64,000 bases of DNA from Patescibacteria group bacterium (GCA_043817315.1 JBDRGY010000003.1:59181-123180), one strand, 5' to 3'. Positions 24,756 through 52,100 are shown, counted from the stretch's first letter. Numbers and translations: made by a program. The notes: generated by a model not told the origin, from the sequence alone.

Positions 24756-25437
24756 GATGAAACCATCTCAGACTAAGAAGCAAAAAGCCTCAACCCAGGC
24801 TTATCTGGACATATCCGAAATTAAAGATGATTGTGTGGTAATGAAGGACGGTACTTTGCGCATGGTATTGTTAGTTTCTTCTATTAATTTTTCGTTAAAA
24901 TCCCAAGATGAACAAAATGCTGTTATCCAAGCATACACCATGTTTCTCAATACTCTTGATTTTCCCTTGCAGATTGTCATTCAGTCCAGGAGGCTAAATA
25001 TTGAAGATTACCTGAAAAAATTACAAAAGACAGAAAGAGAACAGGTCAATGAATTGCTGAAAATGCAAACGGCTGATTATCGTAAATTCGTCGGAGAATT
25101 AGTGGAATTAGGAGATATTATGAGCAAGCGCTTCTTCGTGGTTGTACCCTATTCAGCTTTGACCAATAAACCCAAATCTTTTATGGATCGTATCAGGGAG
25201 ACTTTGTCCCCGACCTCGATTATTAAATTGAGCCAATCTAAGTTTGAAAAATTCAGAAACGAATGCCGCAAGAGGACCGAAATGATAATGGGCGGATTGG
25301 GTTCAATGGACTTGAAGGCTGTCATTTTGGACACTCAATCTTTGATTGAACTGTATTACAATAGTTATAACCCTACTGTTTCAGATTCACAAAAATTAAC
25401 AGAACCAGGAAAGGTGCAAGCCGAACCCTATGATTGA
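24730..25437 (+). CDS. VirB4 N-terminal-domain-like protein (CagE/TrbE/VirB-type region), translationally coupled to VirB4
   Basis: 235 aa. YLDISEIKDDCVVMKDGTLRMVLLVSSINFSLKSQDEQNAVIQAYTMFLNTLDFPLQIVIQSRRLN resembles the N-terminal CagE_TrbE_VirB region of VirB4 ATPases. Stop overlaps the VirB4 start (tATGATTGA). Confidence 0.4.
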   Translation: MPKEKEKSKMKPSQTKKQKASTQAYLDISEIKDDCVVMKDGTLRMVLLVSSINFSLKSQDEQNAVIQAYTMFLNTLDFPLQIVIQSRRLNIEDYLKKLQKTEREQVNELLKMQTADYRKFVGELVELGDIMSKRFFVVVPYSALTNKPKSFMDRIRETLSPTSIIKLSQSKFEKFRNECRKRTEMIMGGLGSMDLKAVILDTQSLIELYYNSYNPTVSDSQKLTEPGKVQAEPYD

Positions 25438-27436
25438 ATTAGCTAAAGAAAAAGAAGTAAAATCCCAAGAAGAAATCCTGACTAAGGAGGAAAAAACCAA
25501 GAAAGAGCAGGAAGAGCTTCTGGAGAAAAAGGAACTTTACGAAGCTACCCGTAGTTATTTGGAAGGAGTGATTTCAGTTAAGGATTTGATCGCCCCGGCT
25601 GGCATGAGGGTGCAGCCCTCCTATGTGGAGTTGGGAGACAAGTTGGTGCGAACCGTTTTTGTGGTGACCTACCCTCGTTATATTGCCGTTGGCTGGTTCG
25701 CCCCGATTATCAGCATGAACGTGCCTTTGGACATTTCCATGTATTTTTATCCAGTACCCTCTCAGATTGTTTTAAAGCAACTTAAGAAAAAGGTGGGTAC
25801 CCTGGAGGCGGATATTATTGCTGATGCCGAAAAAGGAGCCCCCCGCGACCCCATTAGAGAAACAGCCCTGAAAGACATCGAGCGACTAAGAGACGATCTG
25901 ACCCAGGGTATTGAGAAATTTTTCCAGTTTGCACTATACGTTACTGTCTACGCCGACGATATCAAAGAACTTAATGAATTATCGGAAAAGGTAGAGGGCA
26001 TGTTTGGCTCCAAGCTGGTATATTCCAAACGAGTTTTGTATCAAGCGGAGCAAGGGTTTAATTCTACATTGCCCTTGGGCAGCGATGAGCTGCTAATCAG
26101 CTTTAATATGAATTCTTCTCCTTGCGCCTCTTCTTTTCCCTTTATTTCTTCTGAATTGTCTTCAGACAACGGGGTTCTTTACGGCATTAACCGACACAAC
26201 AATAGTTTAATATTGTTTGATCGCTTTAGTCTACAAAACGCTAACAGTGTAGTCTTTGCTACCTCAGGAGCGGGTAAGAGTTATGCGGTTAAATTGGAGG
26301 CCTTGCGCAGTTTGATGATGGGCACTAGTGTCATCATTATCGATCCGGAAATGGAATATAAATATTTGTGCGAAGCGGTTGGTGGGACCTATATTAACAT
26401 TTCTTTGAATTCGGAAAGTAAGATTAATCCTTTTGATTTACCAAGACCTGTCGGAGAGGGAGTAAAACCGGCTGATATTATTCGTAGTGCGGTCATTACC
26501 CTGAAGGGAATGATGCGCCTGATGTTGGGAGACCTTACTCACCAAGAGGATTCGCTGGTTGACCGAGCTCTTTTAGAAACCTATGCCAAAAAAGATATTA
26601 CTTCTGATTCTGATCTGGCAAAAGTAGAGCCTCCTTTGATGTCGGATTTTGAAGAAGTGATGGGCGGCATGGAGGGCAGTGATAGCCTGGTTAGCAGAAT
26701 CAAGAAATATACCGAAGGAACATTTTCCGGTCTTTTTAACAGTCCTACTAATATTGAAATGGATAATCAGATGGTGGTTTTCAGTGTCCGTGATTTGGAA
26801 GATGAGTTAAGACCGATCGGCATTTCTACAATCGTTTCCTATATCTGGAACGTGGTCCGATCTGAAATGAAAAAGAGAGTCTTGGTAATCGATGAAGCCT
26901 GGTGGTTGATGCAAAACGAAGATTCAGCCAAATTCATTTTTGCTCTGGTAAAACGATGTCGTAAATATTATTTAGGAGTTACTACCATTACTCAAGACGT
27001 CAATGACTTTTTGAGATCGCCTTATGGCCAAGCCATTGTCACCAACTCAGCTATCCAAATGCTGTTGAAGCAGTCACCTGCTGGCATCGATATTCTGGTC
27101 AAAACCTTTATGCTGACTCAGGGTGAAAAGTACTTACTTCTAGAATCGGGAGTGGGAGAGGGTATTTTCTTTGCTGGAAATAGTCACGTAGCTATCAAAG
27201 TGGTCGCTTCCTATACCGAAGATCAACTAATTACTTCTGATCCCAGGCAGCTGCTGGAAATTGAGCAGGCCAAGAGAGAATTTCAGGAGGAATTAGACAG
27301 CGGCCAGCTACCACCCCAAGAAGAAGGAGAGGGGGCCGCAGATGGTCTTTATGAGCCGGAACCGATAGACCGTAAGGCAGAAGAAATCACCAAAGAAGGT
27401 GCGCTCGGTCCGGAGCCCAAACAGATCCAACAATAA
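25430..27436 (+). CDS. virB4: Type IV secretion system VirB4/TrsE/TraE-family ATPase
   Basis: 668 aa. Gram-positive-type VirB4 N-region (KLVRTVFVVTYPRYIAVGWFAPI ... NVPLDISMYFYPV ... NSTLPLG). Walker A at FATSGAGKSY. Walker B at VLVIDEAWWLM. Acidic C-terminal tail. Confidence 0.8.
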   Translation: MIELAKEKEVKSQEEILTKEEKTKKEQEELLEKKELYEATRSYLEGVISVKDLIAPAGMRVQPSYVELGDKLVRTVFVVTYPRYIAVGWFAPIISMNVPLDISMYFYPVPSQIVLKQLKKKVGTLEADIIADAEKGAPRDPIRETALKDIERLRDDLTQGIEKFFQFALYVTVYADDIKELNELSEKVEGMFGSKLVYSKRVLYQAEQGFNSTLPLGSDELLISFNMNSSPCASSFPFISSELSSDNGVLYGINRHNNSLILFDRFSLQNANSVVFATSGAGKSYAVKLEALRSLMMGTSVIIIDPEMEYKYLCEAVGGTYINISLNSESKINPFDLPRPVGEGVKPADIIRSAVITLKGMMRLMLGDLTHQEDSLVDRALLETYAKKDITSDSDLAKVEPPLMSDFEEVMGGMEGSDSLVSRIKKYTEGTFSGLFNSPTNIEMDNQMVVFSVRDLEDELRPIGISTIVSYIWNVVRSEMKKRVLVIDEAWWLMQNEDSAKFIFALVKRCRKYYLGVTTITQDVNDFLRSPYGQAIVTNSAIQMLLKQSPAGIDILVKTFMLTQGEKYLLLESGVGEGIFFAGNSHVAIKVVASYTEDQLITSDPRQLLEIEQAKREFQEELDSGQLPPQEEGEGAADGLYEPEPIDRKAEEITKEGALGPEPKQIQQ

Positions 27437-27447
27437 ATTTTAGCTAT

Positions 27448-28092
27448 ATGCCAAAACGTTCAACAAAAAATCAAGGTATGTCCCGGGTTACTATTATGTT
27501 GATAGCAGTGGCCATTCTGTTGATTGTAGTTTTGATCGTGGCTTACTTTATCTACCAGAGAAATCCCCAGAACGAGAATACCAATACAACTACAAACCTA
27601 AATACCAATCAAGCTACCACTAACTTGAACGTAAACAATAGCCTCAACACCAATACTAGCACCAATGTAAATCTAAACTTAAACACAGCGCCAACTACTA
27701 CCGATGCCAAGATAAAAGCCGAGCTACAAAGAATAGCCATCAACTTTACAGAGATTTGGGGTAGCTATTCCAACCAGAGCGATTTCGAGAACATTTTAGA
27801 CCTCAAAGTATTTATGACCGAGAAGATGGGCGATTGGGCTGATGATTATGTGAAAAACGCCAAGGAGAATCAGCCGGCAGCCGGCATCTACTATGGTGTT
27901 ACCTCTAAGGTGTTATCAGCCAAAGTGTCCAAATTTGATAAAGACAAAGGGACAGCTGAATTCCTGGTTACCACCCAACGCAAAGAATCGACAGGTACCG
28001 TAGCCAATTCCCGAATTTTCTATCAAGATAATATTATCAAGTTCGAAAAAGAGGGCGGCGTTTGGAAAGTGGCTGGTTCTTTTTGGCAATAA
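27448..28092 (+). CDS. Bitopic membrane protein with Asn/Thr-rich linker and ~140-aa C-terminal globular domain (VirB8/PrgL-like candidate)
   Basis: 214 aa. N-terminal TM (VTIMLIAVAILLIVVLIVAYFIY), NTNTTTNLNTNQATTNLNVNNSLNTNTST linker, then a mixed alpha/beta domain. Position after VirB4 and the bitopic topology fit VirB8. No sequence motif confirms it. Confidence 0.3.
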   Translation: MPKRSTKNQGMSRVTIMLIAVAILLIVVLIVAYFIYQRNPQNENTNTTTNLNTNQATTNLNVNNSLNTNTSTNVNLNLNTAPTTTDAKIKAELQRIAINFTEIWGSYSNQSDFENILDLKVFMTEKMGDWADDYVKNAKENQPAAGIYYGVTSKVLSAKVSKFDKDKGTAEFLVTTQRKESTGTVANSRIFYQDNIIKFEKEGGVWKVAGSFWQ

Positions 28093-28106
28093 TTAAAATT
28101 ACATTT

Positions 28107-28466
28107 ATGGTTGATTATTGGGAAGGCGCCGATCAAAATGATAAAAAGGAACTGGAGTTATTGGAGAAGGATATCAGAAAGAAGTTAGAAGATTTTGAAA
28201 GAATAATTCCACAAACTCAGAACTTCGAGGCTTGGCAGACAGAATATGATAAAATTGCCGAGCTGTTATTTAAAAGATTTGCTCTTAAAAATAAGATACT
28301 AAACAGCCAGGAGAATTGGTTCCGTAATGGTAAAGGTTCTATCCCTGATTGGCAATCAAAATTACCCACAGCAAGGGGTAATATTTCGAGGGAGCTTAAG
28401 GAAGATCTTGCAGTATCAGCTTTACTAATTGAGGATTTATCTAAGTCAGGAGGGAAAAATGGTTGA
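28107..28466 (+). CDS. Small hydrophilic hypothetical protein
   Basis: Likely start MVDYWEG at 28107. The track ORF start at 28062 overlaps the upstream gene. No motifs. Confidence 0.3.
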   Translation: MVDYWEGADQNDKKELELLEKDIRKKLEDFERIIPQTQNFEAWQTEYDKIAELLFKRFALKNKILNSQENWFRNGKGSIPDWQSKLPTARGNISRELKEDLAVSALLIEDLSKSGGKNG

Positions 28467-29568
28467 TGTTGCCCAAGCTGGACAAGTAGCAACACAGCTG
28501 ATAAGTCGTGTTCCTTTGAAATTGATGATGGGTCAAGCCGCTAATTTGATGGGAGCCCAAGGGGCTATGGAGACTTTTAGGGGGGTATCTAGTCAAGATA
28601 TTAAGAATTATGCCAATTATGCCAAGTCGGCCTATGTCACTAAGCGTACTGCAGCTAGAGAAAGGGCCAAGGAAAGAAGAAAAAAGATACAGAACCGTCG
28701 CAATGCGCCATTACAAACTGGCGGCGCAGCGATCGCTAGTGCCTCTCAACAAGAACGTGAGGCCGATGAAGACAGACAGTTGCAGGAGCAAGATTTGTAT
28801 GATCGTAATCCGCAGATGGCCAAAGTTGGTCCAGAGCAGCAAAGCCTGGTGCAGAGAACCTTGAACAGAAGAAAGGCCGCCAGGGCCAGAAAAAGAAGAG
28901 AAGCCACCAAGCTAAAAAGTCAGACCGGTGTCAAGTCATCATTACCAAGCCAGGGAATGATCCAGTCAAGCTTAGCGGGCCAGGGCCAAATTCCTTCCTG
29001 GGGAGATCAAGCCGGTGGCGGAGGATCACAAGCCGCTGGCACAGAAGCTGATGCAGGAGCAGCAGCACAAGATCAGGCTGAAAAAGAAGAGCCGGAAAAG
29101 GTAGAAGAAGACAAGCAGGGAGAAGCCAGGAGAAGACTCAATGCCTTTCGTCGCTTAAGTAAGGCTAAGGAATCCGGGGAAATTGGTGATCTGAAACTTA
29201 AGGATATAAAAAAGGCCAAAGAAGTAATCAAGCACCTTCAGAATATATATCGGGTGATCAACGGAACATCGGCCGTTTCTGTTGTGGGATTGATTATTAC
29301 ATTTCTGGTGATGAATGCCCAATTGATTTTGGGTAACGGGTTCAAGATAAAAATTGTGCCACCACTTCATTGGAGTGAAGTCGGTTTGATCGGATTAGTA
29401 GATGTCCTGTTGGCCGTTTTACTTCTGCTTGCCATGTTACAGATTGCCATATTTGGGATAATGATTTACAACATCCTACACCCCGAAGCCTTTATTGAAT
29501 ATATGGATATAATATTAAAATCGGGCCTTCAGGGTTTGTTTGATACCTTAAAGGCAATCTTTACCTGA
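28459..29568 (+). CDS. Membrane protein with long basic/Gln-rich N-terminal domain and C-terminal TM helices
   Basis: Start ATG overlaps the previous stop (ATGGTTGA). N-terminal ~260 aa are K/R/Q/A-rich (RERAKERRKKIQNRR ... RRKAARARKRRE). C-terminal 110 aa carry 2-3 TM helices. Confidence 0.4.
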   Translation: MVDVAQAGQVATQLISRVPLKLMMGQAANLMGAQGAMETFRGVSSQDIKNYANYAKSAYVTKRTAARERAKERRKKIQNRRNAPLQTGGAAIASASQQEREADEDRQLQEQDLYDRNPQMAKVGPEQQSLVQRTLNRRKAARARKRREATKLKSQTGVKSSLPSQGMIQSSLAGQGQIPSWGDQAGGGGSQAAGTEADAGAAAQDQAEKEEPEKVEEDKQGEARRRLNAFRRLSKAKESGEIGDLKLKDIKKAKEVIKHLQNIYRVINGTSAVSVVGLIITFLVMNAQLILGNGFKIKIVPPLHWSEVGLIGLVDVLLAVLLLLAMLQIAIFGIMIYNILHPEAFIEYMDIILKSGLQGLFDTLKAIFT

Positions 29569-29585
29569 TATCTAATTATAAGTCT

Positions 29586-31121
29586 GTGAAAAAAATTGGT
29601 TGGTTTATCGTTCTATTGATAATAATATTTGGGATTTTTGGCTTGCATCAAACAGTTGTTAAAGCCCAAGAGGCAGGTTCTGCCGAGCACGAGTCCTTAA
29701 CCCTCCAAGTTCCCCTGGGTGCCGGTAAAGATATCCTGCAATACCCCTATTTCCCCCAATACCTGGAATGGTTATTTGAATATTTCGTAGGTATCACCGC
29801 CATCTTAGCTGCTATCGGCTTGATGTGGGGTGGTTATAAATGGATTGCTGCTTCTGGCAATCCGGGCATGATTACCTCGGCCAAAGGCAGTATTATGAAC
29901 GCAGCTGTTGGTTTGGTCATTGCTTTAACTTCCTGGTTGTTACTTAACACCCTAAATCCTCGGATTACTAATCTGGAGTTTCCCCAGATAAAAAGTCCGG
30001 GGTTTCTCACCGAATCCCTTTCCTGTTCTGGCAAAGACTTTCCCTTGACCGGTGACGACGGTACTTGTTTACCGCCTGATCAGATCCCGCCCTTGGCACT
30101 CTGCCGAGTTGCTGGCCAAGATCCGGTTTATGGAGATGTTGCCTACGTTGCCGAACCTTGGGGTACTAATTGTGGAGAATCGGCTAGCGGTAATGCTTGC
30201 CAGCCGGCAGGTGTGGCTGACGATGACGAGAATTTCAATCAGATGGGTACAGCCTGCGCTGACGGTAGTAAACAAGCTTGTTTCATTATTAACAAAGACT
30301 ATAGTCAATCGGCTTATTTCCGGTGTATGGATTCATTATCTCTACCTGAAGCTAATGCCAAGGGATTCAATGATTCTGCTTGGACTGGGGGTGATGGGCC
30401 TGAATTGTGTATATCCGATTTTCGTTTAAAATGCGGTAAGATATATTGGGAAGAGGGGAATAGTAGTGGGGACGGTTTTTTCGGAACCTTTAGTTATAGG
30501 CGACGCCTAAAAGATCGTTCTGCCTGTGTGATTGATCTTAATAGTTATACCATATACCGGTCAAAATCAGACTGTCTGGGAAATTGGTTTGGTTGCGGTG
30601 CTTATGCTTTTTGTGAGATTGGTTGTTTCGATAATGCTTGGGTAGTAGACCACCGTGGTACAGTCACTCAAGCGGGTTGTCCTACGGGTGTCGGTCATGC
30701 GGGAAATCTCTGCGACGACCTTAGTCAGTTAGCTGATACTTATAATGTCCCCCATCCTTCCCAAAATGCGCCGGTCCTGGACCAACTAATCAGTTGTGTT
30801 ACCAGCAATGTGGCCCCTGGGATGATAGATATGTCCAAATTATTCACAGTTGATCGGGATCACCCTACCTGTAATTACACCCGAGGACATGCTCTTTGTG
30901 AACCGTGTTCCCACACTACCAATTCTTGTCATTATGGTGGCAGCAGCGGAAACGAAGGTGCCTTGGCCGTAGATTTCAATGCTGCCGCAGGTACCACAGA
31001 AGAAGATTTATTCGATGCAATCGAAGGTTTGGTGGTAGCCCCTGGCGCCTGTGCTGGCTTTGCCGGAGAATACTATTTTGAGGACGACCACACTCATGTA
31101 GCAGCTGGTGGCTGTGGTTAA
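29586..31121 (+). CDS. VirB2/TrbC-like pilin hairpin module fused to a Cys-rich ectodomain and a C-terminal possible zinc-hydrolase-like region (paralog 1, 511 aa)
   Basis: Signal peptide (MKKIGWFIVLLIIIFGIFGLHQTVVKAQEA). Then two hydrophobic helices joined by a short loop (FVGITAILAAIGLMWGGYKWIAASGNPGMITSAKGSIMNAAVGLVIALTSWLLL), the T-pilin architecture. About 30 Cys follow. The C-terminal ~140 aa (absent from the paralog) carry H-x-x-G ... ALAVD ... HTH residues. Confidence 0.45.
   Translation: MKKIGWFIVLLIIIFGIFGLHQTVVKAQEAGSAEHESLTLQVPLGAGKDILQYPYFPQYLEWLFEYFVGITAILAAIGLMWGGYKWIAASGNPGMITSAKGSIMNAAVGLVIALTSWLLLNTLNPRITNLEFPQIKSPGFLTESLSCSGKDFPLTGDDGTCLPPDQIPPLALCRVAGQDPVYGDVAYVAEPWGTNCGESASGNACQPAGVADDDENFNQMGTACADGSKQACFIINKDYSQSAYFRCMDSLSLPEANAKGFNDSAWTGGDGPELCISDFRLKCGKIYWEEGNSSGDGFFGTFSYRRRLKDRSACVIDLNSYTIYRSKSDCLGNWFGCGAYAFCEIGCFDNAWVVDHRGTVTQAGCPTGVGHAGNLCDDLSQLADTYNVPHPSQNAPVLDQLISCVTSNVAPGMIDMSKLFTVDRDHPTCNYTRGHALCEPCSHTTNSCHYGGSSGNEGALAVDFNAAAGTTEEDLFDAIEGLVVAPGACAGFAGEYYFEDDHTHVAAGGCG
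29690..29995 (+). repeat. Copy 1 of ~300-bp near-identical (>90%) tandem duplication (pilin-module coding region)
   Basis: Same nucleotide stretch recurs at 31245..31550. Identical 66-aa antisense ORFs at 29834..30034 and 31391..31591 confirm the recent duplication. Confidence 0.8.
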
Positions 31122-31130
31122 TAAAATAAT

Positions 31131-32246
31131 ATGAAAGTAAAAAAAGATAAAATTTGGTTAGCGGTTATCTTCATAAGTATATTATGGGGAGTTTTGGTTG
31201 TCGGCCCTATAGTGGCAGAGGCTGAGGTGGCCACCCCCGCTGAGCATGACCCCTTGACCCTGCAAATTCCCCTAGGCGCCGGTAAAGAGGTTCTGCAATA
31301 TCCCTATTTCCCCCAATACCTGGAATGGTTATTTGAATATTTTGTCGGTATCACCGCTATCTTGGCTGCTATCGGTCTGATGTGGGGTGGTTATAAATGG
31401 ATTGCCGCTTCCGGTAATCCGGGCATGATTACCTCAGCCAAAGGTAGTATTATGAACGCAGCTGTTGGCCTGGTCATTGCTTTAACCTCCTGGTTGTTGC
31501 TAAACACTCTAAACCCCCGGATAACCAGCTTAGAGTTTCCCCAGATAATAAGTCCAGGGGTATTAAGCGATGCACTTTCTTGCGCTGGCAAAGATTATCC
31601 CTTGACCGGAGCAGATGGAAAATGCTTGCCTGCTAATCAAATTCCGCCACTAAAATTGTGTAGAGTGGAAGGAGAAGATCCTGTTTATGGGGCATTGAAA
31701 TATACTAAAAAGCCATGGGAAACAGTTTGTGGCACAACAAATAAAGGTGACGCCTGTTTACCCCTAATAAAAGATGGTAAGGCAACAGGTAACCAGTTCG
31801 GAACGGCTTGTGCTGATGGAAGCAAGAATGTTTGTTTTATACAGGGCATGGACTCCTCGCAAAACGGCTACTTTTCATGTGTTGATACTGTTCAGCTAAA
31901 TGAAGCCCTGGCCAATGGTTTCTCCGAATCGTCCTTTACGGGAGGAGATGGGGCAGAAGGCTTTAATCTTGCCGAGCCCAAGATGTATTGTGGTAGTCTT
32001 TGGTGGGAAAAGGGAGTTACCGACGGAGACGGGTTTTTTGGTACAGCTGCTTATTCTGCAATGTGGGGAAGGGACAGATCTGCCTGTGTAATAAATATGG
32101 CGGCCGGTGTCCAGTGGAAAATTAATTATGCTGATTGTAACTTAAACCTAATAAAACACTGGTGTATGATAGGATGTTGGAATGAAGCTTGGATTATTGA
32201 TGAATATGGCCAAAAACAAAATCGAGGCTGTAGTTATTGGTATTGA
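31131..32246 (+). CDS. VirB2/TrbC-like pilin hairpin module fused to Cys-rich ectodomain (paralog 2, 371 aa)
   Basis: N-terminal ~140 aa nearly identical to 29586..31121. Cys-rich tail is divergent but alignable (GTACADGSK..CFI, GGDG, GDGFFGT, DRSACVI). Confidence 0.45.
   Translation: MKVKKDKIWLAVIFISILWGVLVVGPIVAEAEVATPAEHDPLTLQIPLGAGKEVLQYPYFPQYLEWLFEYFVGITAILAAIGLMWGGYKWIAASGNPGMITSAKGSIMNAAVGLVIALTSWLLLNTLNPRITSLEFPQIISPGVLSDALSCAGKDYPLTGADGKCLPANQIPPLKLCRVEGEDPVYGALKYTKKPWETVCGTTNKGDACLPLIKDGKATGNQFGTACADGSKNVCFIQGMDSSQNGYFSCVDTVQLNEALANGFSESSFTGGDGAEGFNLAEPKMYCGSLWWEKGVTDGDGFFGTAAYSAMWGRDRSACVINMAAGVQWKINYADCNLNLIKHWCMIGCWNEAWIIDEYGQKQNRGCSYWY
31245..31550 (+). repeat. Copy 2 of ~300-bp near-identical tandem duplication
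   Basis: See 29690..29995. Confidence 0.8.
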
Positions 32247-33613: not shown

Positions 33614-34963
33614 ATGAGCATCAAAACAGTTTATTCCTGCACTAAGTGTGACGCCCAATTCCCCAAATGGCAGGGCCGTTGCCCAGAATGTGGCGCCTGG
33701 GGAACTATCGGACAGCAAACGGTAACCAGGAAAAGTAAACCAATAAACCAAGGATTGCCACCAGGACGGGTGGTTAATTTGGATTCAATAGATGAAAAGA
33801 CTTTGCCCAGAGTTAAGTCCAATATTAAGGAATTTGACCGGGTGGTGGGAGGGGGAATTGTGCCTGGTTCTCTTAGTTTGATCGGTGGTGACCCGGGTAT
33901 TGGCAAGTCTACTTTGGTACTGCAGATAGCTGAAGCTTTATCCCAATCAATGCCGGGTAAAATACTGTATGTTTCTGGTGAAGAATCTGCAGAACAAGTC
34001 AAAATGCGCCTCAAAAGAATCGGCAGGCAAGGAGCAAAGCTACAGTTTCTAAGCGAAACCTCGGCGGAAACGATTGTGGCCACCCTGGCTGAATACCAAC
34101 CCAAGTTGGCTATTATCGATTCCATCCAGACCATGTTTACTGAGGATGTTAAATCAGAGGCCGGTTCCGTCAACCAAATAAAAGCCTGTACCACCAAGTT
34201 TCTGGAAATTGCCAAGCCCAATAATATTTCCCTGTTAATCATAGGGCATGTTACTAAGGGAGGAACCATGGCGGGTCCCAAGACCTTAGAACATTTAGTG
34301 GACGTAGTCTTGTATTTAGAAGGAGATAAATACCATGCCTTCAGGATTCTGCGAGCTGCCAAAAATCGTTTTGGAGCTACAGCCGAAGTGGGTATTTTTG
34401 ACATGCAGGAGAAGGGGATGGTTGAGGTAAAAAATCCTTCGGAACTATTCTTGAAAGAGAGGCAAAAAAACACTCCAGGTTCGGCAGTAGCCTCTATTGT
34501 TGAAGGAACCAGGTCGTTTTTAGTGGAAATCCAGGCCCTAGTTTCTCGTACCCATTTTGGCTATGCCAAACGGGTGGCCCTGGGAGTCAATTTTAAACGT
34601 TTAGAACTATTAGTAAATGTATTAAAGAAGAGAACCAAGCTAAGCTTGGCCAATCAGGATATTAATGTAAATGTTGCCGGCGGTATCAAAATTGCAGAAC
34701 CAGCTGCTGATCTGGCAATTTGTTTAGCTATTTATTCTGCTTTAACTAATAAAGTGATTGAACCCAAGATGGTGGCTATCGGCGAAGTTGGTTTGGCCGG
34801 TGAATTGCGAACTGTAGCCCATCTGGAGAAAAGGATTAACGAAGCCAGTAAACTGGGTTTTAATCAGATAATGATGCCGGCTGCCGCCAAAATTTCTGGA
34901 AATAAAGACCTCAATATTATTACTGTCAAAAATCTACAAGAGGCATTTCAATTTTTAGAATAG
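33614..34963 (+). CDS. radA: DNA repair protein RadA (Sms)
   Basis: N-terminal C4 zinc finger (CTKCDAQFPKWQGRCPECGAWGT). RecA-like Walker A (GGDPGIGKSTL). KNRFG motif (AAKNRFGAT). C-terminal Lon-protease-like domain. Confidence 0.9.
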   Translation: MSIKTVYSCTKCDAQFPKWQGRCPECGAWGTIGQQTVTRKSKPINQGLPPGRVVNLDSIDEKTLPRVKSNIKEFDRVVGGGIVPGSLSLIGGDPGIGKSTLVLQIAEALSQSMPGKILYVSGEESAEQVKMRLKRIGRQGAKLQFLSETSAETIVATLAEYQPKLAIIDSIQTMFTEDVKSEAGSVNQIKACTTKFLEIAKPNNISLLIIGHVTKGGTMAGPKTLEHLVDVVLYLEGDKYHAFRILRAAKNRFGATAEVGIFDMQEKGMVEVKNPSELFLKERQKNTPGSAVASIVEGTRSFLVEIQALVSRTHFGYAKRVALGVNFKRLELLVNVLKKRTKLSLANQDINVNVAGGIKIAEPAADLAICLAIYSALTNKVIEPKMVAIGEVGLAGELRTVAHLEKRINEASKLGFNQIMMPAAAKISGNKDLNIITVKNLQEAFQFLE

Positions 34964-34978
34964 ACTATAATCAAAACC

Positions 34979-35530
34979 TTGAAGAAACTGCCTAAAAATT
35001 TTTTTAATCGCGACACCAAAAAAGTCGCCGTAGAATTATTAGGTCATTATTTGATACGGAAAAAGGGCAGCCAGGTTTATCAAGGAATCATCACTGAAAC
35101 GGAAGCTTTCGTTGGTCCCAATGACCTGGCCTCTCACGCCTCCAAAGGTAGGACCAAAAGAACCGAAACAATGTTTGGACCTGCGGGTCAGGCCTATGTC
35201 TATTTAATTTACGGTATGTATTACTGCTTTAATATTGTGACCGAAGAATTAGATTATCCGGCTGCAGTCTTAATTCGAGCTTGCCAGCCGGTTAAAACGT
35301 ATAAGGGAATTATTTCGGTAGGTCCCGGCAAGTTATCTCAGGCTTTTAGGATCGACAAGAAGCTTAATGGTCAAAGTGTCTATGGCAACCAGATTTGGAT
35401 TGCCAAGGGGCCCGAAGTAATTAAGAGAAAAAATATCAAAAAAGCCAAACGGGTTGGCGTAGATTATGCCGATATGTATAAAAATAAATTGTGGCGCTAC
35501 TATCTTAAAAACAATAAATATATTTCTTGA
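34979..35530 (+). CDS. DNA-3-methyladenine glycosylase (Mpg/AAG family)
   Basis: 183 aa. [50 protein letters not shown] matches the ETEAY..DxASH..G.T.RN..MFG..G..YVY..YG.H.C.N family signature. Confidence 0.8.
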
Positions 35531-35540
35531 ATATAAAAAA

Positions 35541-35566
35541 AGAGGGACGGAATCCAATTCCGTCCC
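35541..35566 (-). terminator. Rho-independent terminator for the minus-strand gene 35584..36270 (possibly bidirectional with mpg)
   Basis: GGGACGGAAT / ATTCCGTCCC 10-bp stem with 3-nt loop at 35544-35566. On the minus strand it is followed by TCTTTTTTTATATT (plus-strand A-run 35533-35540). Confidence 0.55.
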
Positions 35567-36620
35567 CGAAGAAGGTTCACTTTCTAGCCCACGTTTGGGC
35601 AGAGCAGGGAGAAGATCGCCGGTGGCGACTGACGCCGGTCCAGCAACCGCTGAATCTGGGCATGGTTGTTGCCCGTCTCGATCATCTGCCTGACCTGGTC
35701 AGGGTCGAAACCCTTGTTGACCAGTTCCTGGCAGTTGACACAAAGGTCGGTGCAAGCAACCCAACGGCGATAGCGCGGTATCTTGCTCCCGCAGCCTACG
35801 CACTTGTCACCGTTGCCGTTTGCCAGCTGGCTGCGGACGTGTCTTCCCTCACGAACCGAACGATGAAGGAGAGCTTCCCGATCCGGACTGAAGTCCCCTG
35901 TCGAATCAGCCATGTGCACAGCGTAGCGCTGTGATGGTATGTGCGACAGGGTGTTTTCTGTCCGGGCAAGCACGTCCTTATGCATCTGGAGCTCCCGAAA
36001 CCACCTGGTATCGTGGATTTCTCTCCAACGATCAGCCGGCAAGCAATCCAGAAGTGCCATTACAGTATCGGAGTCGTCTGTTCCCGAAACCAACAACTTG
36101 GGAACCAACTCCTCAGGCGCCGCTGACAACAGCTCATCTGGTTTGATACCCAGACGACTCAGCGATCCTAGCTCGATCCCTACCCCTTCCAGATCCTCTG
36201 CAGTGATGGGTGTTCCACCAAGCAGAGTTGCGGTTTTGATACCGCTGGTCACGCTCCTAGCCTTTGCCATCGAAACACCTGCCCTTCAGGTGTTTGCCAC
36301 CAGTTTTTGCCTTTTCAGGACCTCACCTTAGTTTGCCTCGTGATGCAGCTCTTGGGTTCTGAAGAGGCTAGGGTGCGTGTATCCGGTTCACACACCGACC
36401 TCCTTTCCGGTTTTGAAGGTTGTCGTTGACGATGCCAACGGGACAGATTTACCCCTAGGGGCAATCTGCACAATATAGAGGGGAGAAAAGCGTAGTGCCA
36501 GCTTACCAATGCATCCTGGGTCCAAGGCAGGCAAGGCCTGGTGGGGCCCGTCATCCATGTCTCAGGAATGCTTGAGTTTAGCCGTATCGTGGCCCTCGCA
36601 AATTCTCCCCCTTTATGCGG
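35567..36620. other. ~1-kb GC-rich island in an otherwise AT-rich sequence (compositional anomaly, likely horizontally acquired)
   Basis: Visibly high G+C from ~35570 to ~36620. Flanking DNA returns to the AT-rich background on both sides. Contains a single confident gene on the minus strand. Confidence 0.6.
35584..36270 (-). CDS. DksA/TraR-family C4-type zinc-finger protein encoded in the GC-rich island
   Basis: C-terminal CVGCGSKIPRYRRWVACTDLCVNCQ fits the dksA/traR C4 motif (C-x2-C-G-x2-I-x3-R-x6-LC-x2-CQ). SD-like AGGTG lies 5 nt upstream of ATG 36270. Own intrinsic terminator. N-terminal 150 aa are uncharacterised. Confidence 0.5.
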   Translation of the reverse strand: MAKARSVTSGIKTATLLGGTPITAEDLEGVGIELGSLSRLGIKPDELLSAAPEELVPKLLVSGTDDSDTVMALLDCLPADRWREIHDTRWFRELQMHKDVLARTENTLSHIPSQRYAVHMADSTGDFSPDREALLHRSVREGRHVRSQLANGNGDKCVGCGSKIPRYRRWVACTDLCVNCQELVNKGFDPDQVRQMIETGNNHAQIQRLLDRRQSPPAIFSLLCPNVG

Positions 36621-36694
36621 GGTTTTGGTTGAAAGTGAATATTCAAGGAACGTATTGCTTATTATAAATAATTTGGTATTTTTGTCAAGCCCCC

Positions 36695-38752
36695 CTACTC
36701 TAAATGTATATCTTGCCCGAATTGGGCAATTTTTTTAGATAATAAAGAAAATTTATCGAGTTGTTTAATACTCTTTTGAGCGGCCTCCCTGGCTTCTTGA
36801 ATAATTTGATGATCAGATAGGGTGGCAATCTTTAGGTCAAGATAGCCTGATTGACGAATTCCGTATATCTCACCGGGACCCCTGAATTGTAAATCTTTTT
36901 CGGCCAGCTCAAAGCCATTTTGAGAAGCCACTAGCGCCTCCAATCTGTCCAGTGTCTTGGCGGTTTCATTTTCCGTAAAAAGAAAACAGTAAGACTGATG
37001 CCGGTCACGACCGATACGGCCCCTGAATTGATGTAATTGGGCCAGACCAAATCTTTCAGCCCCTTCAATCATCATTACGGTAGCATTGGGGATATCAATA
37101 CCGACTTCCACCACTGAGGTGGAAACCAGAATATTGATTTTATTATCGCTAAAGTCTTGCATTACTTTATCTTTATCTTTTGGTTTGAGCTTGCCGTGCA
37201 AGAGCCCGATTATTAGCTCAGGAAAAATTTGCTGATCCAGCTTTTTGTACTCAGTGGTGACGGCCTTTACTCCCAGTTTGTCAGAGGGGTCAATCAGAGG
37301 ACAGACAACAAATATCTGTCGACCGGCTTTTATTTGATCATCAATAAACTTATAAGTCTCATCTCTTTTTTCCGGTTGCACAATTTTAGTGATTATCTTT
37401 TTACGGCCAGAGGGTAATTGATCGATTATTGATAAATCTAAATCACCATAAATCGCCAGGGCCAAGGAACGGGGAATCGGGGTGGCAGTCATCGAAAGCA
37501 GGTGGGGTAGTAGCTCGTCCTTGGATTGGCTTTTCAGTTTTTTTCTTTGGGCTACTCCAAAACGATGCTGCTCATCAACAATGGCTAATCCCAGATTGTG
37601 AAAGTTAATTTCCCCTTCGATTAAAGCGTGGGTGCCGATTACAAAGTTAATTGCGCCATCGCTGATTAAGCCAATAAGTTCTTTCTTAGTTACCGAAGAT
37701 CGTAAATTTGTTTCAAAATGAGCACGGGTTAAAATGGCTACTTTCAGCTTTTTCTGCAGCAACTTTTTAATGTTGTCATAATGTTGACGAGCTAATATTT
37801 CTGTCGGAGCCATCAACACAGATTGAAAGCCATTGAGAAAACAGTTAATGACCGCAATTACGGCGGTAATGGTTTTCCCCGAGCCAACATCTCCCTCCAG
37901 AAGGCGATTCATTGGTCTGCCCCCCGCAAGATCTTTGAGAATTTCCCAGGCGGCTTTTCTTTGGGCATCAGTTAATTTAAACGGCAATTTAGACACAAAA
38001 GCCTTGGTTTCTTTTTCTTTAAATTTAACCAAGGGGGATTTTTGTTTAGCTAAATCCTGCTTATTTTTTAGGGCAAAAAGCTGGATCAAAAAGAGCTCGT
38101 CGAACTTTAAACGATGGCGGGCGGACTCCAGGTTTTTTTGATTTTGAGGAAAATGGATCTGTTGGTAAGCGGTTTTTAGATTGGTTAGGCGGTATTTATT
38201 TTGGATGGGCTGGGGTAGCCAATCGATGATCGAGTTAGTAACTGGAAGGGCTTTTTTTATCAGAAATCTTAGCTGTTTTTGAGTCAGATTGGAAGTAGTG
38301 GAATAGATGGGAATGATGCCGGCAGTGTGGATTTGATCGGGCCTTACTTTTTCAAAAATCGGAGATACTAATTGTAAACCATATTGACTTAATTCGCATT
38401 TCCCTGAAAGGTAGACAGAATCGCCCGCTTCTAATACCTTAGTCAGAAAACCCTGATTGAACCAGACTACCTTAAGGCTGGCTGTTTGATCTTTTACCAG
38501 ACTTTCCGTGATCATCATTCTCTTGCGAGGAGAACGGAAATTCTTTATCATTTGCACTTTGGCTTTTACAGTAACGATGTCACCACTTTTAACCTGGGCG
38601 ATTGTTGTTATTTGGGACAAATCATCGTAGCGAAAGGGAAAATAGGTTATTAAATCAAAAATAGTTGCTACACCCAATTTCTTCAAACGGGTGGCCACTG
38701 CTTTACCTACGCCGGACAAGTCTTCTATCGACTGGTTATAGTCAGCTCTCAT
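36695..38752 (-). CDS. recG: ATP-dependent DNA helicase RecG
   Basis: 685 aa. N-terminal wedge region (LSGVGKAVATRLKKLGVATIFDLITYFPFRYDD). Helicase motif I GDVGSGKT. DEQHRFGV motif II. C-terminal FRGRIGR. Confidence 0.9.
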   Translation of the reverse strand: MRADYNQSIEDLSGVGKAVATRLKKLGVATIFDLITYFPFRYDDLSQITTIAQVKSGDIVTVKAKVQMIKNFRSPRKRMMITESLVKDQTASLKVVWFNQGFLTKVLEAGDSVYLSGKCELSQYGLQLVSPIFEKVRPDQIHTAGIIPIYSTTSNLTQKQLRFLIKKALPVTNSIIDWLPQPIQNKYRLTNLKTAYQQIHFPQNQKNLESARHRLKFDELFLIQLFALKNKQDLAKQKSPLVKFKEKETKAFVSKLPFKLTDAQRKAAWEILKDLAGGRPMNRLLEGDVGSGKTITAVIAVINCFLNGFQSVLMAPTEILARQHYDNIKKLLQKKLKVAILTRAHFETNLRSSVTKKELIGLISDGAINFVIGTHALIEGEINFHNLGLAIVDEQHRFGVAQRKKLKSQSKDELLPHLLSMTATPIPRSLALAIYGDLDLSIIDQLPSGRKKIITKIVQPEKRDETYKFIDDQIKAGRQIFVVCPLIDPSDKLGVKAVTTEYKKLDQQIFPELIIGLLHGKLKPKDKDKVMQDFSDNKINILVSTSVVEVGIDIPNATVMMIEGAERFGLAQLHQFRGRIGRDRHQSYCFLFTENETAKTLDRLEALVASQNGFELAEKDLQFRGPGEIYGIRQSGYLDLKIATLSDHQIIQEAREAAQKSIKQLDKFSLLSKKIAQFGQDIHLE

Positions 38753-38816: not shown

Positions 38817-39140
38817 TCAGACTTGATCCGATAACCCAGAAATTCCATCGAACCAGTCCTTGGATAGATCATACCAGTTTGGATTTTCTTTTTCTATTAA
38901 GGACAGCTTCCAATCCCTATTCCATCCTTTCAGTTGTTTTTCGCGACGGATTGCTTCACTAATATCATCTATTTCTTCAAAATAAACGAGTTTGTTAACA
39001 TGATACTGAGCCGTGAAGCTGTATTTGTCGAATTTAGTTTTGTGTTCATAAACTCGTCTAATAAGGTTGTTGGTTACGCCGATATATAGCGTTCCATTGC
39101 GCTGGCTGGCCAATATGTAGATATAATAAATACGGGACAT
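38817..39140 (-). CDS. GIY-YIG nuclease-family small protein
   Basis: 107 aa. YYIYILASQRNGTLYIGVTNNLIRRVYEHK is the GIY-YIG/UPF0213 signature. Confidence 0.75.
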   Translation of the reverse strand: MSRIYYIYILASQRNGTLYIGVTNNLIRRVYEHKTKFDKYSFTAQYHVNKLVYFEEIDDISEAIRREKQLKGWNRDWKLSLIEKENPNWYDLSKDWFDGISGLSDQV

Positions 39141-39219
39141 AAGATTTTTCTTTTATTTCCCGTCTTTTCTGGACTGTCGAATCAAGTTCGACAGTGACTG
39201 CGTGTGTTTTAATTTCTTT

Positions 39220-39294
39220 GGTACCCTCGAGTGGAATCGAACCACTATTACAGGCTCCGCAAGCCTGTGTCCTATCCGTTGAACGACGAGGGCT
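39220..39294 (-). tRNA. tRNA-Arg (anticodon GCG), CCA encoded
   Basis: Hand-folded GCCCTCGTCGTTCAACGGATAGGACACAGGCTTGCGGAGCCTGTAATAGTGGTTCGATTCCACTCGAGGGTACCA. 7-bp acceptor stem (G1-U71 wobble). D-loop with GG and A20. Anticodon stem CAGGC/GCCTG with loop TTGCGGA. T-loop TTCGATT. Confidence 0.7.
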
Positions 39295-49121: not shown

Positions 49122-52100
49122 ATGATGGTTTTTAGACGACAATTATTTCAGTCCGGCAAGAAACTAACTTTTCCAGTGAAAGTCTGTTTGTTTATTGCGT
49201 CATTACTATTAGTTGTAGGGGTGTTAAAAGTGGGCCAGGCGGCTTGGCAGGAACCAAGTGATGAACCAACAGGCGGAGGGATCTATTCGCCGCCGATTAC
49301 TACCTCTGCTACTGAACAGACCAAGGCTGGTGGTTTAGAGGTAGTCGGCAGTGATACCGATGGCTCTCTAGAAACCAAGGCGGGCCTGGAAGTGGCATCC
49401 GGCAATTTATTTATTGATAATGATCTGAATGTGGCCAACGGCGATTTAACAGTTGGCAGCGATGCCTTGTTTATAGATGCCAGTGCCAGAAGGGTGGCCA
49501 TCAATGATGCTACAGGTGAATCTAGCACCTCATTATGGGTAAGTGGCCGAGGCCATTTTGTCAGCAGCGGTCAGGCCTCAAGCGGTGGCATAGAGGACAG
49601 AGCTTTAGTGGCTGAGTATCTGGATTCAAATTATGATTCCAACACCAAAGAAGAAACGGTTTATATCGAAAACGATTCGGCTACCGACCCGGCGGTTTTG
49701 GGTACCAGCCTTTCGACCAGTGGGGGCGGGGGAGTGTTAGGCAAAGGAGGCGATTTGGATGCAGCCGGGGAGTCTTCCTACGCGATTTTAGCGGATTCAG
49801 GCAGCGGCCAAGGTGAAAATTACGCGGCTGAATTTAGCGACGTTGTCGCAGTTGATAACTTTCGTTTTTATTTGACTGATGACCTGGATATTGCCCGCTA
49901 CGATCATACCGCCACTTTATTGAATGACGGACGTGTCTTGATCACCGGCGGCTGGACCGGAGCCAATTTTACTGATCCTACAGAAACCGCCGAGATTTAC
50001 AATCCGGCCACTGGTCAATTTATCCCGACTACTACAGATATGACTTCGCCCCGGGCTAACCATTATGCCACTTTATTAGCTGATGGCCGGGTCTTAATAT
50101 CCGGCGGTTATGACGCTGACAATAAAAACAGCTTTATTAACACCGGAGAATATTTTGATCCGGATGATAACAGTTTTACGCCCCTGGGCTTTAACTTATC
50201 CAGTATGGCAGAGGGTACAGCTACCCTGTTATCTGATGGCCGCATTGCCTTTATTGGAGGGGCCTGGGGTACTGGTTCTGGTGATGTTTATAATGACGCC
50301 TATCTATGTGACTTAGTTAATGAAAGTTGCGTGATTGGTCCTGGTAGCGGCCTCAGCGATGGCAAAAAGAATCATACAAGCACTCTATATAAATCAGAGG
50401 CCGGTACTGATTATATCCTGGTAGCCGGAGGTGAATCTGGTTCTGTTCATGCCTCAGCCGATATTTATCGAGTCGGGAGCATAAATCAGACTACCTCTTT
50501 GGGTAATATGCCCGGGGGTCGGACGAGACACACCGCCACCCTCTTGGAAAATGGCAAAGTGCTGTTAGCTGGCGGCCGTGACTTAGCAGATAATCGGGGA
50601 AATAACGGTTACCTATTTGACCCGAGTGGTCCCAATATCACCGACATAGGAGATACGATGCAAAATGGACGGTACGCTCACGATGCGGTGACACTGGAAA
50701 GCGGTCTAGTTCTTATTAGTGGTGGTTCTGTTACAGGCAAAGGAATGGACGTTTATGATTATGTCAGTAACAGTTTTATAGATCCACTAGATGACGCTAA
50801 TGACCAAGTGTTGATAGCTCAGCTAACTACCCCCGAGTTCAACCCCCCGCAACTTAATGTAATCCGCCAAGGACACACCATGACTCTTTTACTCAACGGG
50901 CGTACTTTAATCGTCGGAGGTATAGACCCCAACACTACTCTTGTGTCTGCAACGGAGATTACCGAAGCAGCCCTGCAAGTCGGCTGGAGCAGCCAGATCA
51001 CTAATTTGAAGGCTGAATTTTTAGACGGTCACCGGGAAGATGAATTTGTGACTGATGATAATTTTGCCGCTCTTTTCGGTAACGTATTGGAAAATCAAAC
51101 GGCCGCAGACCAGAAATTAAACTTTTATCTTTCGGGACAGGGAATATTTGAAGGAGGGTTGGAATCTGATCTAAATGTAGATGACTTATACGCCATGACG
51201 GCGACCAATAATTCAGATTCAGGAGGTTACGGAGTTAAGGTACAAGCTGCTGACGCTGATTCTGATGAAACTACTTACGGGGTGTATGGCACTGCGGTAT
51301 CCGGCGCCAATACGGCCCGGGCTGCTTACTTCGAGGGCCGAGTTCAGATAGAAACGGATAAAATCAAAGAAGGCTCTTTTATCAACGCCGGTAATTTTGA
51401 CTACTCCATATCAGGACAGGCCGGAACAGCTTTGGCCAACGGTCAAGTATTTATGGCGGGGGGAGATAGGGGCAACGGCGCAGATAATGATTTTGTCAAC
51501 GATTCTTATGCCTACGATCCTTCGTCGGGAAGTATATCTTCTCAGCTGGCCATGCCAACTGCCAGAACCGGACATCAAGTTACTAATATCGGCAATGGTA
51601 AATGGTGGAATCCCTTTTATCAATATCGACGCCAAATTGAAATAAGTGCTGTAACCGATGATGTACCAGCCGGGCACGGTGTCTATATAGATACAGACGT
51701 GGAAGCTCTGGTCGCAGAAGGTAAGGTCAGATCCGATTATAAGGACTGGCGTGTCGTCTACTGGGACGGTGATGGTTGGGAAGATATTGGACGGGATTAT
51801 CTGGGACATCGGGTATCCAGCCAGACCTGGTTTACAGTACAAGAGGTAATTGCCTCCGGTTCCTCGGATGACAATTATTATATTTATTACGGGAATAGCG
51901 AGGAAACAACTGAATCAGGTACTTCCGGGGCTGTTGTTAGCTTCGATGATTATACCCTGGCCAGCTACGGTTCGCTGGACATAGATGTTGATCAATATGA
52001 AGTTTTGGATTCCGGCTATACTTTAAAACTGTGGGGTAATAATTGGAAAGTAGTAAATTATTTTTCCGATACCTCTGACAGTGAATTAAACTTAGATTTC

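Follow-up and report, generated by a model that had tools for sequence, protein, structure and literature searches.

The GC-rich unit between mpg and recG

The DNA analysed here is a stretch of 64,000 nucleotides (nt) from a Patescibacteria group bacterium, called the window below, and the element under study is a GC-rich island at 35541-36640 that carries a divergent dksA-like gene behind a long leader. The G+C content (GC) is 0.555 over the island vs. 0.440 elsewhere in the window. Among all stretches of 1.1 kilobases (kb) in the 64 kb (mean 0.442, standard deviation (sd) 0.031), the island ranks first, ~3.5 sd above the mean, and the profile runs at ~0.36–0.46 on either side and at 0.52–0.60 from ~35550 to 36600. 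An abrupt GC-rich island of ~1 kb set between mpg and recG, as described in a first-pass annotation of this DNA, is thus present, and both flanks were identified by their Pfam-type domain matches, namely PF02245 (185 bits) for mpg and RecG_wedge, DEAD, and Helicase_C for recG.

On balance, the island appears to be a single, self-contained transcription unit, ~1.12 kb long and encoded on the minus strand (Table 1). The promoter directly follows the stop codon of recG and faces the GC-rich region; the composite promoter pattern occurs once in the window and never in shuffled sequences. The same arrangement of promoter and TACGTTC motif heads both of the tandem modules in a homologous locus, L002, each of which consists of promoter, ~400-nt leader, open reading frame (ORF), and terminator, and a similar arrangement with TTGACA-17-TATAAT is found in another, L004. 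Together, the window, L002 (copies a and b), and L004 provide four independent leaders. At the other end of the unit, the terminator proposed by the first-pass annotation was found as described: on the minus strand, a perfect stem of 10 base pairs (bp; 35544–35553/35557–35566) precedes a T-run, at a distance of 13 nt from the stop codon of mpg. In L002 and L004, too, the gene ends in a homologous GGGACGGAUUC...GAAUCCGUCCC hairpin. A plus-strand hairpin with a T-run in the 3′ end of recG, which had been taken as a barrier to read-through, also exists. However, the orthologous ends of recG in L002 and L004 lack this hairpin, its T-run corresponds to conserved Lys-Lys codons, and the number of terminator-like sites nearby does not exceed chance (three found vs. 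2.1 expected). The hairpin is genome-specific and probably incidental.

Table 1. Features of the island and its borders in the window.
Feature	Position	Strand	Remarks
Sigma-70-type promoter, TTGACA-16 nt-TATAAT	36661..36688	−	12/12 consensus; −35 at 36688..36683, −10 at 36666..36661
5′ leader	36271..36654	−	~384 nt, GC 0.53; predicted start at conserved TACGTTC (36654..36648)
5′ structured domain	36480..36610	−	Closed by long-range helix 36610..36603/36487..36480, GGGGGAGAA/UUCUCCCC
Shine-Dalgarno (SD) sequence of upstream ORF (uORF)	36399..36408	−	Perfect, GGAAAGGAGG; block kept in all four leaders
Seven-codon uORF	36368..36391	−	GTG AAC CGG ATA CAC GCA CCC TAG = M-N-R-I-H-A-P-stop
Hairpin at uORF stop	36310..36368	−	Begins at or next to the uORF stop codon
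SD-sequestering hairpin	36273..36295	−	9 bp, AAACACCUG-AAGGG-CAGGUGUUU; buries AGGTG before ATG
Main SD, AGGTG	36280..36276	−	5 nt ahead of ATG
Main ORF	35584..36270	−	228 amino acids (aa), divergent DksA/TraR-type; P0001 = MFH1597937.1
C4 zinc finger	35731..35802	−	Residues 157–180, CVGC-x16-CVNC, then Q
Intrinsic terminator	35533..35567	−	Stem-loop 35567..35543, then T-run; back-to-back with mpg stop codon (35530)
recG-internal hairpin and T-run	36713–36729	+	Inside recG 3′ end
AT-rich inverted repeat	Flanking the island		73% matched, low complexity; overlaps mpg stop and promoter

The leader and its Pro-stop uORF

The GC-rich region of ~420 nt upstream of the gene, for which a promoter or a structured RNA had been considered at first, holds both the 12/12 promoter and a structured domain. 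The four leaders share short blocks and little sequence, and an nhmmer profile finds only these copies in 1.47 megabases (Mb) of fetched DNA. Their fold z-scores are −2.0 to −3.1. In the minimum free energy (MFE) folds of all four, a long-range helix of different sequence closes a domain of ~130–150 nt, and this is the main helix recovered by RNAalifold from a MAFFT alignment of the four leaders.

Downstream of this domain, GGAAAGGAGG is followed after 4–6 nt by GTG and a seven-codon ORF in all four leaders. The counterparts of MNRIHAP* in the window are MAMLHGP* (twice) and MVHNHSP*; namely, the length, His5, Pro7, and the stop are conserved in four independent leaders. The signature composed of SD, start codon, three codons, and His-x-Pro-stop is unique in the fetched DNA and is not found in shuffled sequences. 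A hairpin begins 0–3 nt after the uORF stop in every leader, with stems unrelated in sequence (GCCUC/GAGGC, CCGUUGUUG/CAACAACGG, CCGCCU/AGGCGG, and CGUCGCC/GGCGAGCG). The hairpin that occludes the main SD in the window has analogs in L002a, L002b, and L004; in L004 the stem abuts the start codon. The second module of L002 (460–1322, equivalent to L001 951–1813), with its own promoter, ~400-nt leader, and MAMLHGP* uORF, drives an unrelated Cys-rich ORF of 125 aa (L002 892–1269) that has its own terminator and no Pfam or PADLOC match.

Pro-stop uORFs are also found in other lineages, in long leaders ahead of the gene that occupies the mpg-recG slot (see below), each behind a strong SD: MMMRGGP* in L019, MKRGP* in L010 and L097, and MNFAQPP* in L026. 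A generic search for an SD followed by a 4–8-codon ORF ending in Pro-stop found seven independent cases in 25.7 kb of recG-downstream spacers vs. ~13–14 in the remaining ~2.9 Mb; by our own arithmetic, ~0.12 would be expected in the spacers (Poisson p ~1e-10). In the MFE folds of L010 and L019, the main SD is paired with an anti-SD, CCCUUCCUAUA, that begins 2–4 nt past the stop codon of the uORF; this predicted structure has the classical geometry of translational attenuation. The leaders of this Kerfeldbacteria type (L010 7427–7760 and L019 7004–7350, minus strand) share a conserved 5′ domain that shows compensatory changes (CUCUGGAGG/CCUUCAGAG vs. CUCUCGGG/CCUGAGAG) and, as judged by their sequences, are a second, unrelated leader family for the same gene. 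Other Patescibacteria have simpler analogs of this packaging of uORF and leader.

No Rfam family matches the leader. A scan of 34500–37500 with the covariance models of Rfam 15 gave no match at E ≤ 1, so the structured RNA suspected in the first-pass annotation has no counterpart there, and gathering-level scans of the window, L002, L004, L010, L019, L026, and L012 gave nothing but tRNAs. RNase P, tmRNA, 6S RNA, riboswitches, ribozymes, and group I/II introns were rejected by the Rfam scans together with ARAGORN. The unit resembles the large RNAs and long leaders in Rfam (riboswitches, T-boxes, r-protein leaders, OLE, ROOL, GOLLD, and raiA) in its high GC content and strong folding against the AT-richer genome, in its strong promoter, and in an architecture kept across homologs. 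It differs from them in lacking an Rfam 15 match at that threshold, in the number of known leader copies, only four, and in having its strongest excess structure in the coding region, not in the leader.

A divergent DksA/TraR-type protein

The main ORF has a coding-like composition (GC1/2/3 of 0.62/0.45/0.64), and the AGGTG SD noted in the first-pass annotation is confirmed at its place, 5 nt ahead of the start codon. In searches of billions of proteins, by word index and exhaustively with HMMER, only two true relatives were found, P0003 (172 aa) and, by profile, P0006 (173 aa), which are called the W clade together with the window protein (P0001). This variant was found in only three genomes (5.8 billion protein clusters searched). 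Another candidate relative, P0002, was a spurious repeat-protein match. Between the three homologs, 20 of the 25 invariant residues use different synonymous codons, indicating that the ORF is under protein-level selection. All three share a helix, a CxxC-x16-CxxC-Q finger with four invariant Cys, and a helical tail of ~40 residues, the only part that AlphaFold models confidently.

The family assignment comes from profiles. NCBIfam TraR TIGR02419 matches the window protein with an E-value of 1.2e-5 and 25.7 bits, below its cut-off of 59.7, and a second TraR model (PRK13715) gives 12.7 bits vs. a cut-off of 108. The PHROG family “DksA-like zinc finger” (phrog_54) matches with an E-value of 3.4e-5; like TIGR02419, it covers residues ~125–185. 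A W-clade family profile searched against the Protein Data Bank (PDB) recovers TraR (E 0.0035), YbiI (0.006), DksA (0.14), and nothing else. Furthermore, hhalign aligns the W clade with the canonical proteins of the mpg-recG slot at 95.7% probability (E 9e-9), and the homology extends beyond the finger. An H-x-A-D motif at the position of the DksA coiled-coil tip is found in the W clade and specifically in the L010 and L019 (Kerfeldbacteria) proteins, and its Asp is the one residue aligned with the acidic tip of the N-terminal coiled coil (DxxDxA in DksA). Thus, the TraR/DksA label of the first-pass annotation holds at the level of the family, by the PDB profile and hhalign, and not by PF01258 itself: this Pfam model gave no match to the window protein at E ≤ 1 (gathering threshold 24.9 bits), and its scores for the two closest homologs, 19.7 and 20.8 bits, lie under the threshold. 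On these profile comparisons, the window gene is regarded as a very divergent member of the DksA/TraR zinc-finger superfamily.

The likeness to this family consists in a four-Cys finger that comes after a helix and bears the I-P...R...C-x2-C-Q signature, in the Asp at the aligned coiled-coil tip, and in the genomic slot, which holds canonical members in related genomes. The differences are a finger spacing of x16 in place of the canonical x17, the missing conserved Pro, scores below the Pfam and NCBIfam cut-offs, a length of 228 aa with an N-terminal extension of 100 aa, and the C-terminal helical tail of 40 aa that is common to the three W-clade proteins only. The four Cys and the Gln of the C-x2-C…C-x2-CQ finger were reported correctly at first, but the finger is internal and not C-terminal, being followed by 48 residues. 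An AlphaFold2 (AF2) model built from a two-sequence alignment has a predicted local distance difference test (pLDDT) score of 52, with helices 89–110 and 129–150 below 50, and a Foldseek search of the PDB with this pLDDT 52 model found nothing significant. The protein is presumably a regulator that acts at the secondary channel of RNA polymerase (RNAP), and its gene encodes the only DksA-type finger in the window.

The mpg-recG slot across Patescibacteria

The gene for P0003 lies between recG and mpg, followed by radA and a type IV secretion system (T4SS) pilin gene, which is the same neighborhood as in the window. This locus is present in JGI, ENA, and Logan assemblies, with contigs 100% identical to one another. 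The gene for P0006 occupies the same slot in L004 (JAIWBS010000052.1), a contig of another metagenome-assembled genome (MAG) at NCBI. This 6.5-kb contig is labeled as a Pirellulales MAG and is probably mis-binned; its mpg and recG products are 77–80% identical to those of the window, and it has the same island. Between the W-clade genomes, the flanking proteins are 59–80% identical and the slot protein only 27–35%.

Among mpg loci from species-representative genomes and metagenomes, the convergent mpg-recG junction is widespread in Patescibacteria. The spacer is empty (14–111 nt) in ~10 loci, such as L007, L008, and L104, and many others hold 0.5–1.7 kb. At least 10 further loci have a slot gene of 103–165 aa on the recG strand with its own promoter, and these cluster with the island proteins by BLASTP to give 14 slot genes together. 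All 10 of the canonical slot genes tested match PF01258 at 23–56 bits, nine of them above the gathering score. The island gene is therefore taken to be the lineage's own, highly diverged dksA-like gene, since it sits in the same slot, is homologous to the canonical proteins by hhalign, shares H-x-A-D, and has no phage or plasmid match.

The slot is variable: besides the ~10 empty loci and at least 14 with a dksA-like gene, it holds other small unannotated ORF families in several (L023/L081, L027, L037, L148, and L005, in a range of loci from L005 to L163). A distant relative, L032 (6600–7700), has a different GC-rich insert in the slot (0.55 vs. 0.48), with a 154-aa CxxC...CxxC ORF and an overlapping 252-aa ORF and without a long leader. 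A GC peak near mpg in L025 was rejected as a counterpart of the island; it encodes an unrelated large secreted protein. A metagenome scan with mpg gave no new W-clade copies among the matches listed, in which all relatives were at most 59% identical.

Composition and folding of the coding region

The GC excess of the island gene is not peculiar to it. All 14 slot genes are richer in GC than their recG and mpg neighbors, by +0.05 to +0.19, and their excess at third codon positions (GC3) is +0.01 to +0.26. In the window, the GC3 of the neighboring genes is ~0.41–0.42 vs. 0.64 for the island ORF. The three W-clade genes exceed their neighbors almost equally (+0.16–0.18 in GC and +0.23–0.24 in GC3). 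Since the GC3 excess is equal in three diverged genomes whose synonymous sites have long been saturated, it must have been maintained and not inherited from a donor.

Indeed, the coding region is strongly folded. Against shuffles of synonymous codons that left both protein and codon usage unchanged, the W-clade ORFs have fold z-scores of −5.5 (window), −3.0, and −5.6, and the unrelated 125-aa ORF behind the second L002 leader has one of −3.6; nine control genes range from +1.4 to −2.4 (mean −0.5), and the ten canonical slot genes all lie mildly below zero (mean −1.7). Dinucleotide-preserving shuffles gave −6.5 and −5.7 vs. −1.95 for mpg. The full transcript is predicted to be 66% paired at ~−0.42 kcal/mol/nt, with local and long-range helices mixed and no rod-like shape. 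Such extreme folding of a protein-coding region (z of about −6) is unusual, and in these models it is a plausible cause of the GC3 excess. A standing, selected property of a native gene, here RNA structure that extends into the coding sequence, can accordingly produce a sharp GC island, which is not by itself proof of horizontal transfer. The transcript 5′ end (36631–36644) is complementary to the 3′ untranslated region between the stop and the terminator (35571–35584; 14 nt, 86%); this pairing forms a 9-bp helix in the full-length MFE fold of the window and is not seen in the homologs.

Origin of the island

The first-pass annotation read the island as a compositional foreigner left by a past contact with a mobile element, with TraR as typical plasmid or phage cargo and the T4SS-like genes nearby as a further hint. 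According to this explanation, horizontally acquired TraR-type cargo, the remnant of a conjugative element or phage, would have been placed between mpg and recG. The abrupt compositional jump is in line with it, as are the best named HMM matches, which are TraR of phages and conjugal plasmids and a phage DksA-like family. The many relatives with an empty spacer of 14–111 nt, the 27% identity of the island protein between flanks of 59–80%, and the confinement of the W-clade variant to three genomes point the same way. However, at least 10 other lineages of Patescibacteria have a canonical dksA-like gene at this position, with the same orientation and a promoter of its own, and the W-clade proteins are homologous to its products beyond the finger. 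The affinities of the W clade with L010 and L019 already point to nesting among Patescibacterial slot genes. Nor is the compositional argument supported, with a GC excess that is common to all 14 slot genes and stable across diverged genomes.

Signs of mobility were sought at the island itself. There is no integrase or transposase ORF, no flanking direct repeat, and no convincing terminal repeat. The only flanking inverted repeat is AT-rich; its match of only 73%, low complexity, and overlap with the mpg stop and the promoter rule it out as an element end. Searches of phage and plasmid records by blastn and tblastn, which the cargo idea had called for, gave no match to the island DNA or protein, no match was found in viral contigs by a protein scan or a leader-pattern scan, and a PADLOC scan was negative. 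IS200/IS605, an IS110 bridge RNA, a retron, and an Obelisk- or viroid-like element were also rejected, on the grounds that no matching enzyme and no repeats are found and that the full-length fold is not rod-like. The protein does not qualify as a TraR of conjugative plasmids or phages either: TraR has ~70 aa vs. 228 aa here, the score is below the cut-off, and the gene is not on a plasmid or phage but in chromosomal synteny across lineages. As for the T4SS-like genes, the window holds radA upstream of mpg and recG and, upstream of radA (25430–32246), two T4SS_pilin-domain genes and a gene for a VirB4/TraG-like P-loop ATPase. The synteny of the pilin gene is kept in L001, and the T4SS-like genes seem to be a conserved part of the chromosome and not an integrated element. 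Horizontal acquisition is thus considered quite unlikely.

Alternatively, a GC-rich fragment of another organism might have been joined into the contig during assembly, as the abrupt GC switch and the metagenomic source of the genome would allow. This is highly improbable, because the same unit of promoter, leader, uORF, ORF, and terminator occupies the recG-mpg interval in independent assemblies (JGI, ENA, Logan, and a further MAG at NCBI). The junctions are homologous, too, with the promoter directly next to the stop codon of recG and the terminator next to that of mpg.

Proposed translational control and its alternatives

With moderate confidence, the island is interpreted as a host dksA-like gene under translational control by a leader peptide, whose GC content derives from selection on RNA structure and not from transfer. 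The seven-codon uORF probably controls translation of the dksA-like gene. Ribosomes would translate the uORF and then pause, or terminate slowly, at Pro-stop; the pause would remodel the downstream structure and determine the frequency of initiation at the sequestered main SD, thereby coupling production of the RNAP regulator to the state of translation. The high GC, above all at third codon positions, would be a by-product of selection on RNA structure throughout the transcript.

Peptidyl-Pro is released inefficiently, and a Pro just before the stop codon is known to slow this step, as in TnaC (Pro24-stop) and in the SsrA tagging of proteins with a C-terminal Pro. The window leader resembles the leader attenuators of ermC/ermB and cat/cmlA and that of tnaC in having a short uORF with its own strong SD and a downstream gene whose SD lies in a hairpin. 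As in termination-stalling leaders of the tnaC type, the peptide ends in Pro-stop, and the anti-SD of L010 and L019 lies within the expected footprint of a ribosome at the uORF stop. Unlike in these systems, the SD hairpin of the window is self-contained, with the uORF stop 98 nt from the ATG and no direct footprint overlap; a structured domain of ~250 nt precedes the uORF; and the downstream gene encodes a transcription factor, not a resistance or catabolic function.

A second comparison is with arrest peptides. RAGP/RAPP/RGPP motifs stall ribosomes at the peptidyl-transferase center and are found in small ORFs upstream of diverse genes (PMC12992588); they include RAGP of SecM, RAPP of ApdA/ApdP, and RGPP (PMC12992588, PMC10951233, PMC10951299). 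The Arg of the RAPP-like core is reported to be nearly irreplaceable, and the known peptides need additional N-terminal contacts with the tunnel (PMC12992588). Like them, the W-clade uORFs are small upstream ORFs whose products end in [basic]-[Ala/Gly/Ser]-Pro, and RGGP-stop in L019 and RGP-stop in L010 come near RAGP and RGPP. The core itself (R-A/G-P-P, R-A-P-G, or R-A-G-P) is absent: the window uORF ends in R-I-H-A-P-stop and its homologs in HGP-stop and HSP-stop, so that His stands for Arg and a stop codon for the A-site Pro in a peptide of only seven residues.

Several points weigh against leader-peptide control. The transcription start, translation of the uORF, and stalling are all predictions from sequence, and RNAP binding by the protein is an extrapolation from its family, because the Pfam model failed and the AF2 model is poor (pLDDT 52). 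The distance of 98 nt between the uORF stop and the main ATG in the window means that any coupling must be indirect. In equilibrium folding, masking a ribosome footprint on the uORF opened the main SD in none of the four W-clade leaders; it failed also in L010 and L019, where the anti-SD is directly covered, so that this test has little power, and it lends the model no positive support. His occupies the position where RAPP-type motifs need Arg, and the substitutions between the uORFs of L002a and L002b are neutral under both the peptide model and a hairpin model. The consensus structure of the four leaders is weak (RNAalifold, −5.8 kcal/mol), and nhmmer finds no link between the W-clade leaders and those of L010 and L019.

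The transcript might instead be mainly a large structured RNA, possibly of dual function, that binds RNAP, ribosomes, or a metabolite, with the DksA-like ORF as a second function; the “uORF” would then be an SD-like structural or ribosome-docking element and not a translated regulator. Fold z-scores of −5.5 to −6.5 in the coding region, which are typical of dedicated noncoding RNAs, and the perfect consensus of the promoter would suit such an RNA, as would the use of the same leader type for an unrelated 125-aa ORF in L002, the hairpin that the uORF region also forms in three of the four copies, and the 5′ domain of the leader, which has no assigned role. It is nevertheless judged unlikely, as purifying selection on the protein is clear, the uORF keeps its length, frame, His5/Pro7, and in-frame stop even where the hairpin is weak (L004), unrelated leaders also contain Pro-stop uORFs, Rfam offers no matching family, and there is no known trans target.

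Or the leader could be a riboswitch-like sensor, in which the 5′ domain of 250 nt binds a ligand such as an alarmone and controls the SD hairpin, the uORF being incidental. The long GC-rich domain of conserved architecture, closed by a covarying long-range helix, and the sequestered main SD fit this possibility, and the biology of DksA is linked to ppGpp. However, no Rfam riboswitch matches at E ≤ 1, including the ykkC/ppGpp classes, the sequence of the 5′ domain is poorly conserved even within the W clade, and a uORF that is both conserved and enriched is difficult to regard as incidental. A sensor of this kind therefore seems improbable, even more so than a dual-function RNA.

Compared with these alternatives, control through the uORF is preferred. 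What is new here is a Pro-stop mini-uORF leader absent from Rfam together with a hyper-structured coding region, a combination found in full form in three genomes only. More tentatively, and rather doubtfully, the ~1.1-kb unit might represent an undescribed class of regulatory RNA in Patescibacteria (the candidate phyla radiation, CPR), in which the large structured leader and the Pro-stop mini-uORF would sense translation status or a ligand and govern a DksA-like regulator; the hyper-structured coding region would belong to the device and make the transcript a dual-function RNA. If this were true, it would constitute direct feedback from translation to transcription in organisms whose stringent-response circuitry is largely obscure. 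Gene regulation in these bacteria with tiny genomes is almost unexplored experimentally, and in several lineages of the CPR a conserved Pro-stop mini-uORF precedes a DksA-type factor, suggesting that the efficiency of both elongation and termination by ribosomes sets the level of an RNAP regulator. If the uORF is inert and the structure only stabilizes the mRNA, the island is simply a divergent dksA-like gene with a long leader.

Other features of the window

A gene for a free-standing GIY-YIG nuclease domain of 107 aa lies just downstream of the recG start region (38817–39140, minus strand), and a tRNA-Arg(GCG) gene adjoins it (39219–39293, minus strand). Three giant ORFs of 3162, 1594, and 2034 aa are found on the plus strand at 6529–16017, 49122–53906, and 53915–60019, respectively. 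The first of them contains the second-highest GC stretch of the window (~14400–15600, GC ~0.51–0.52).

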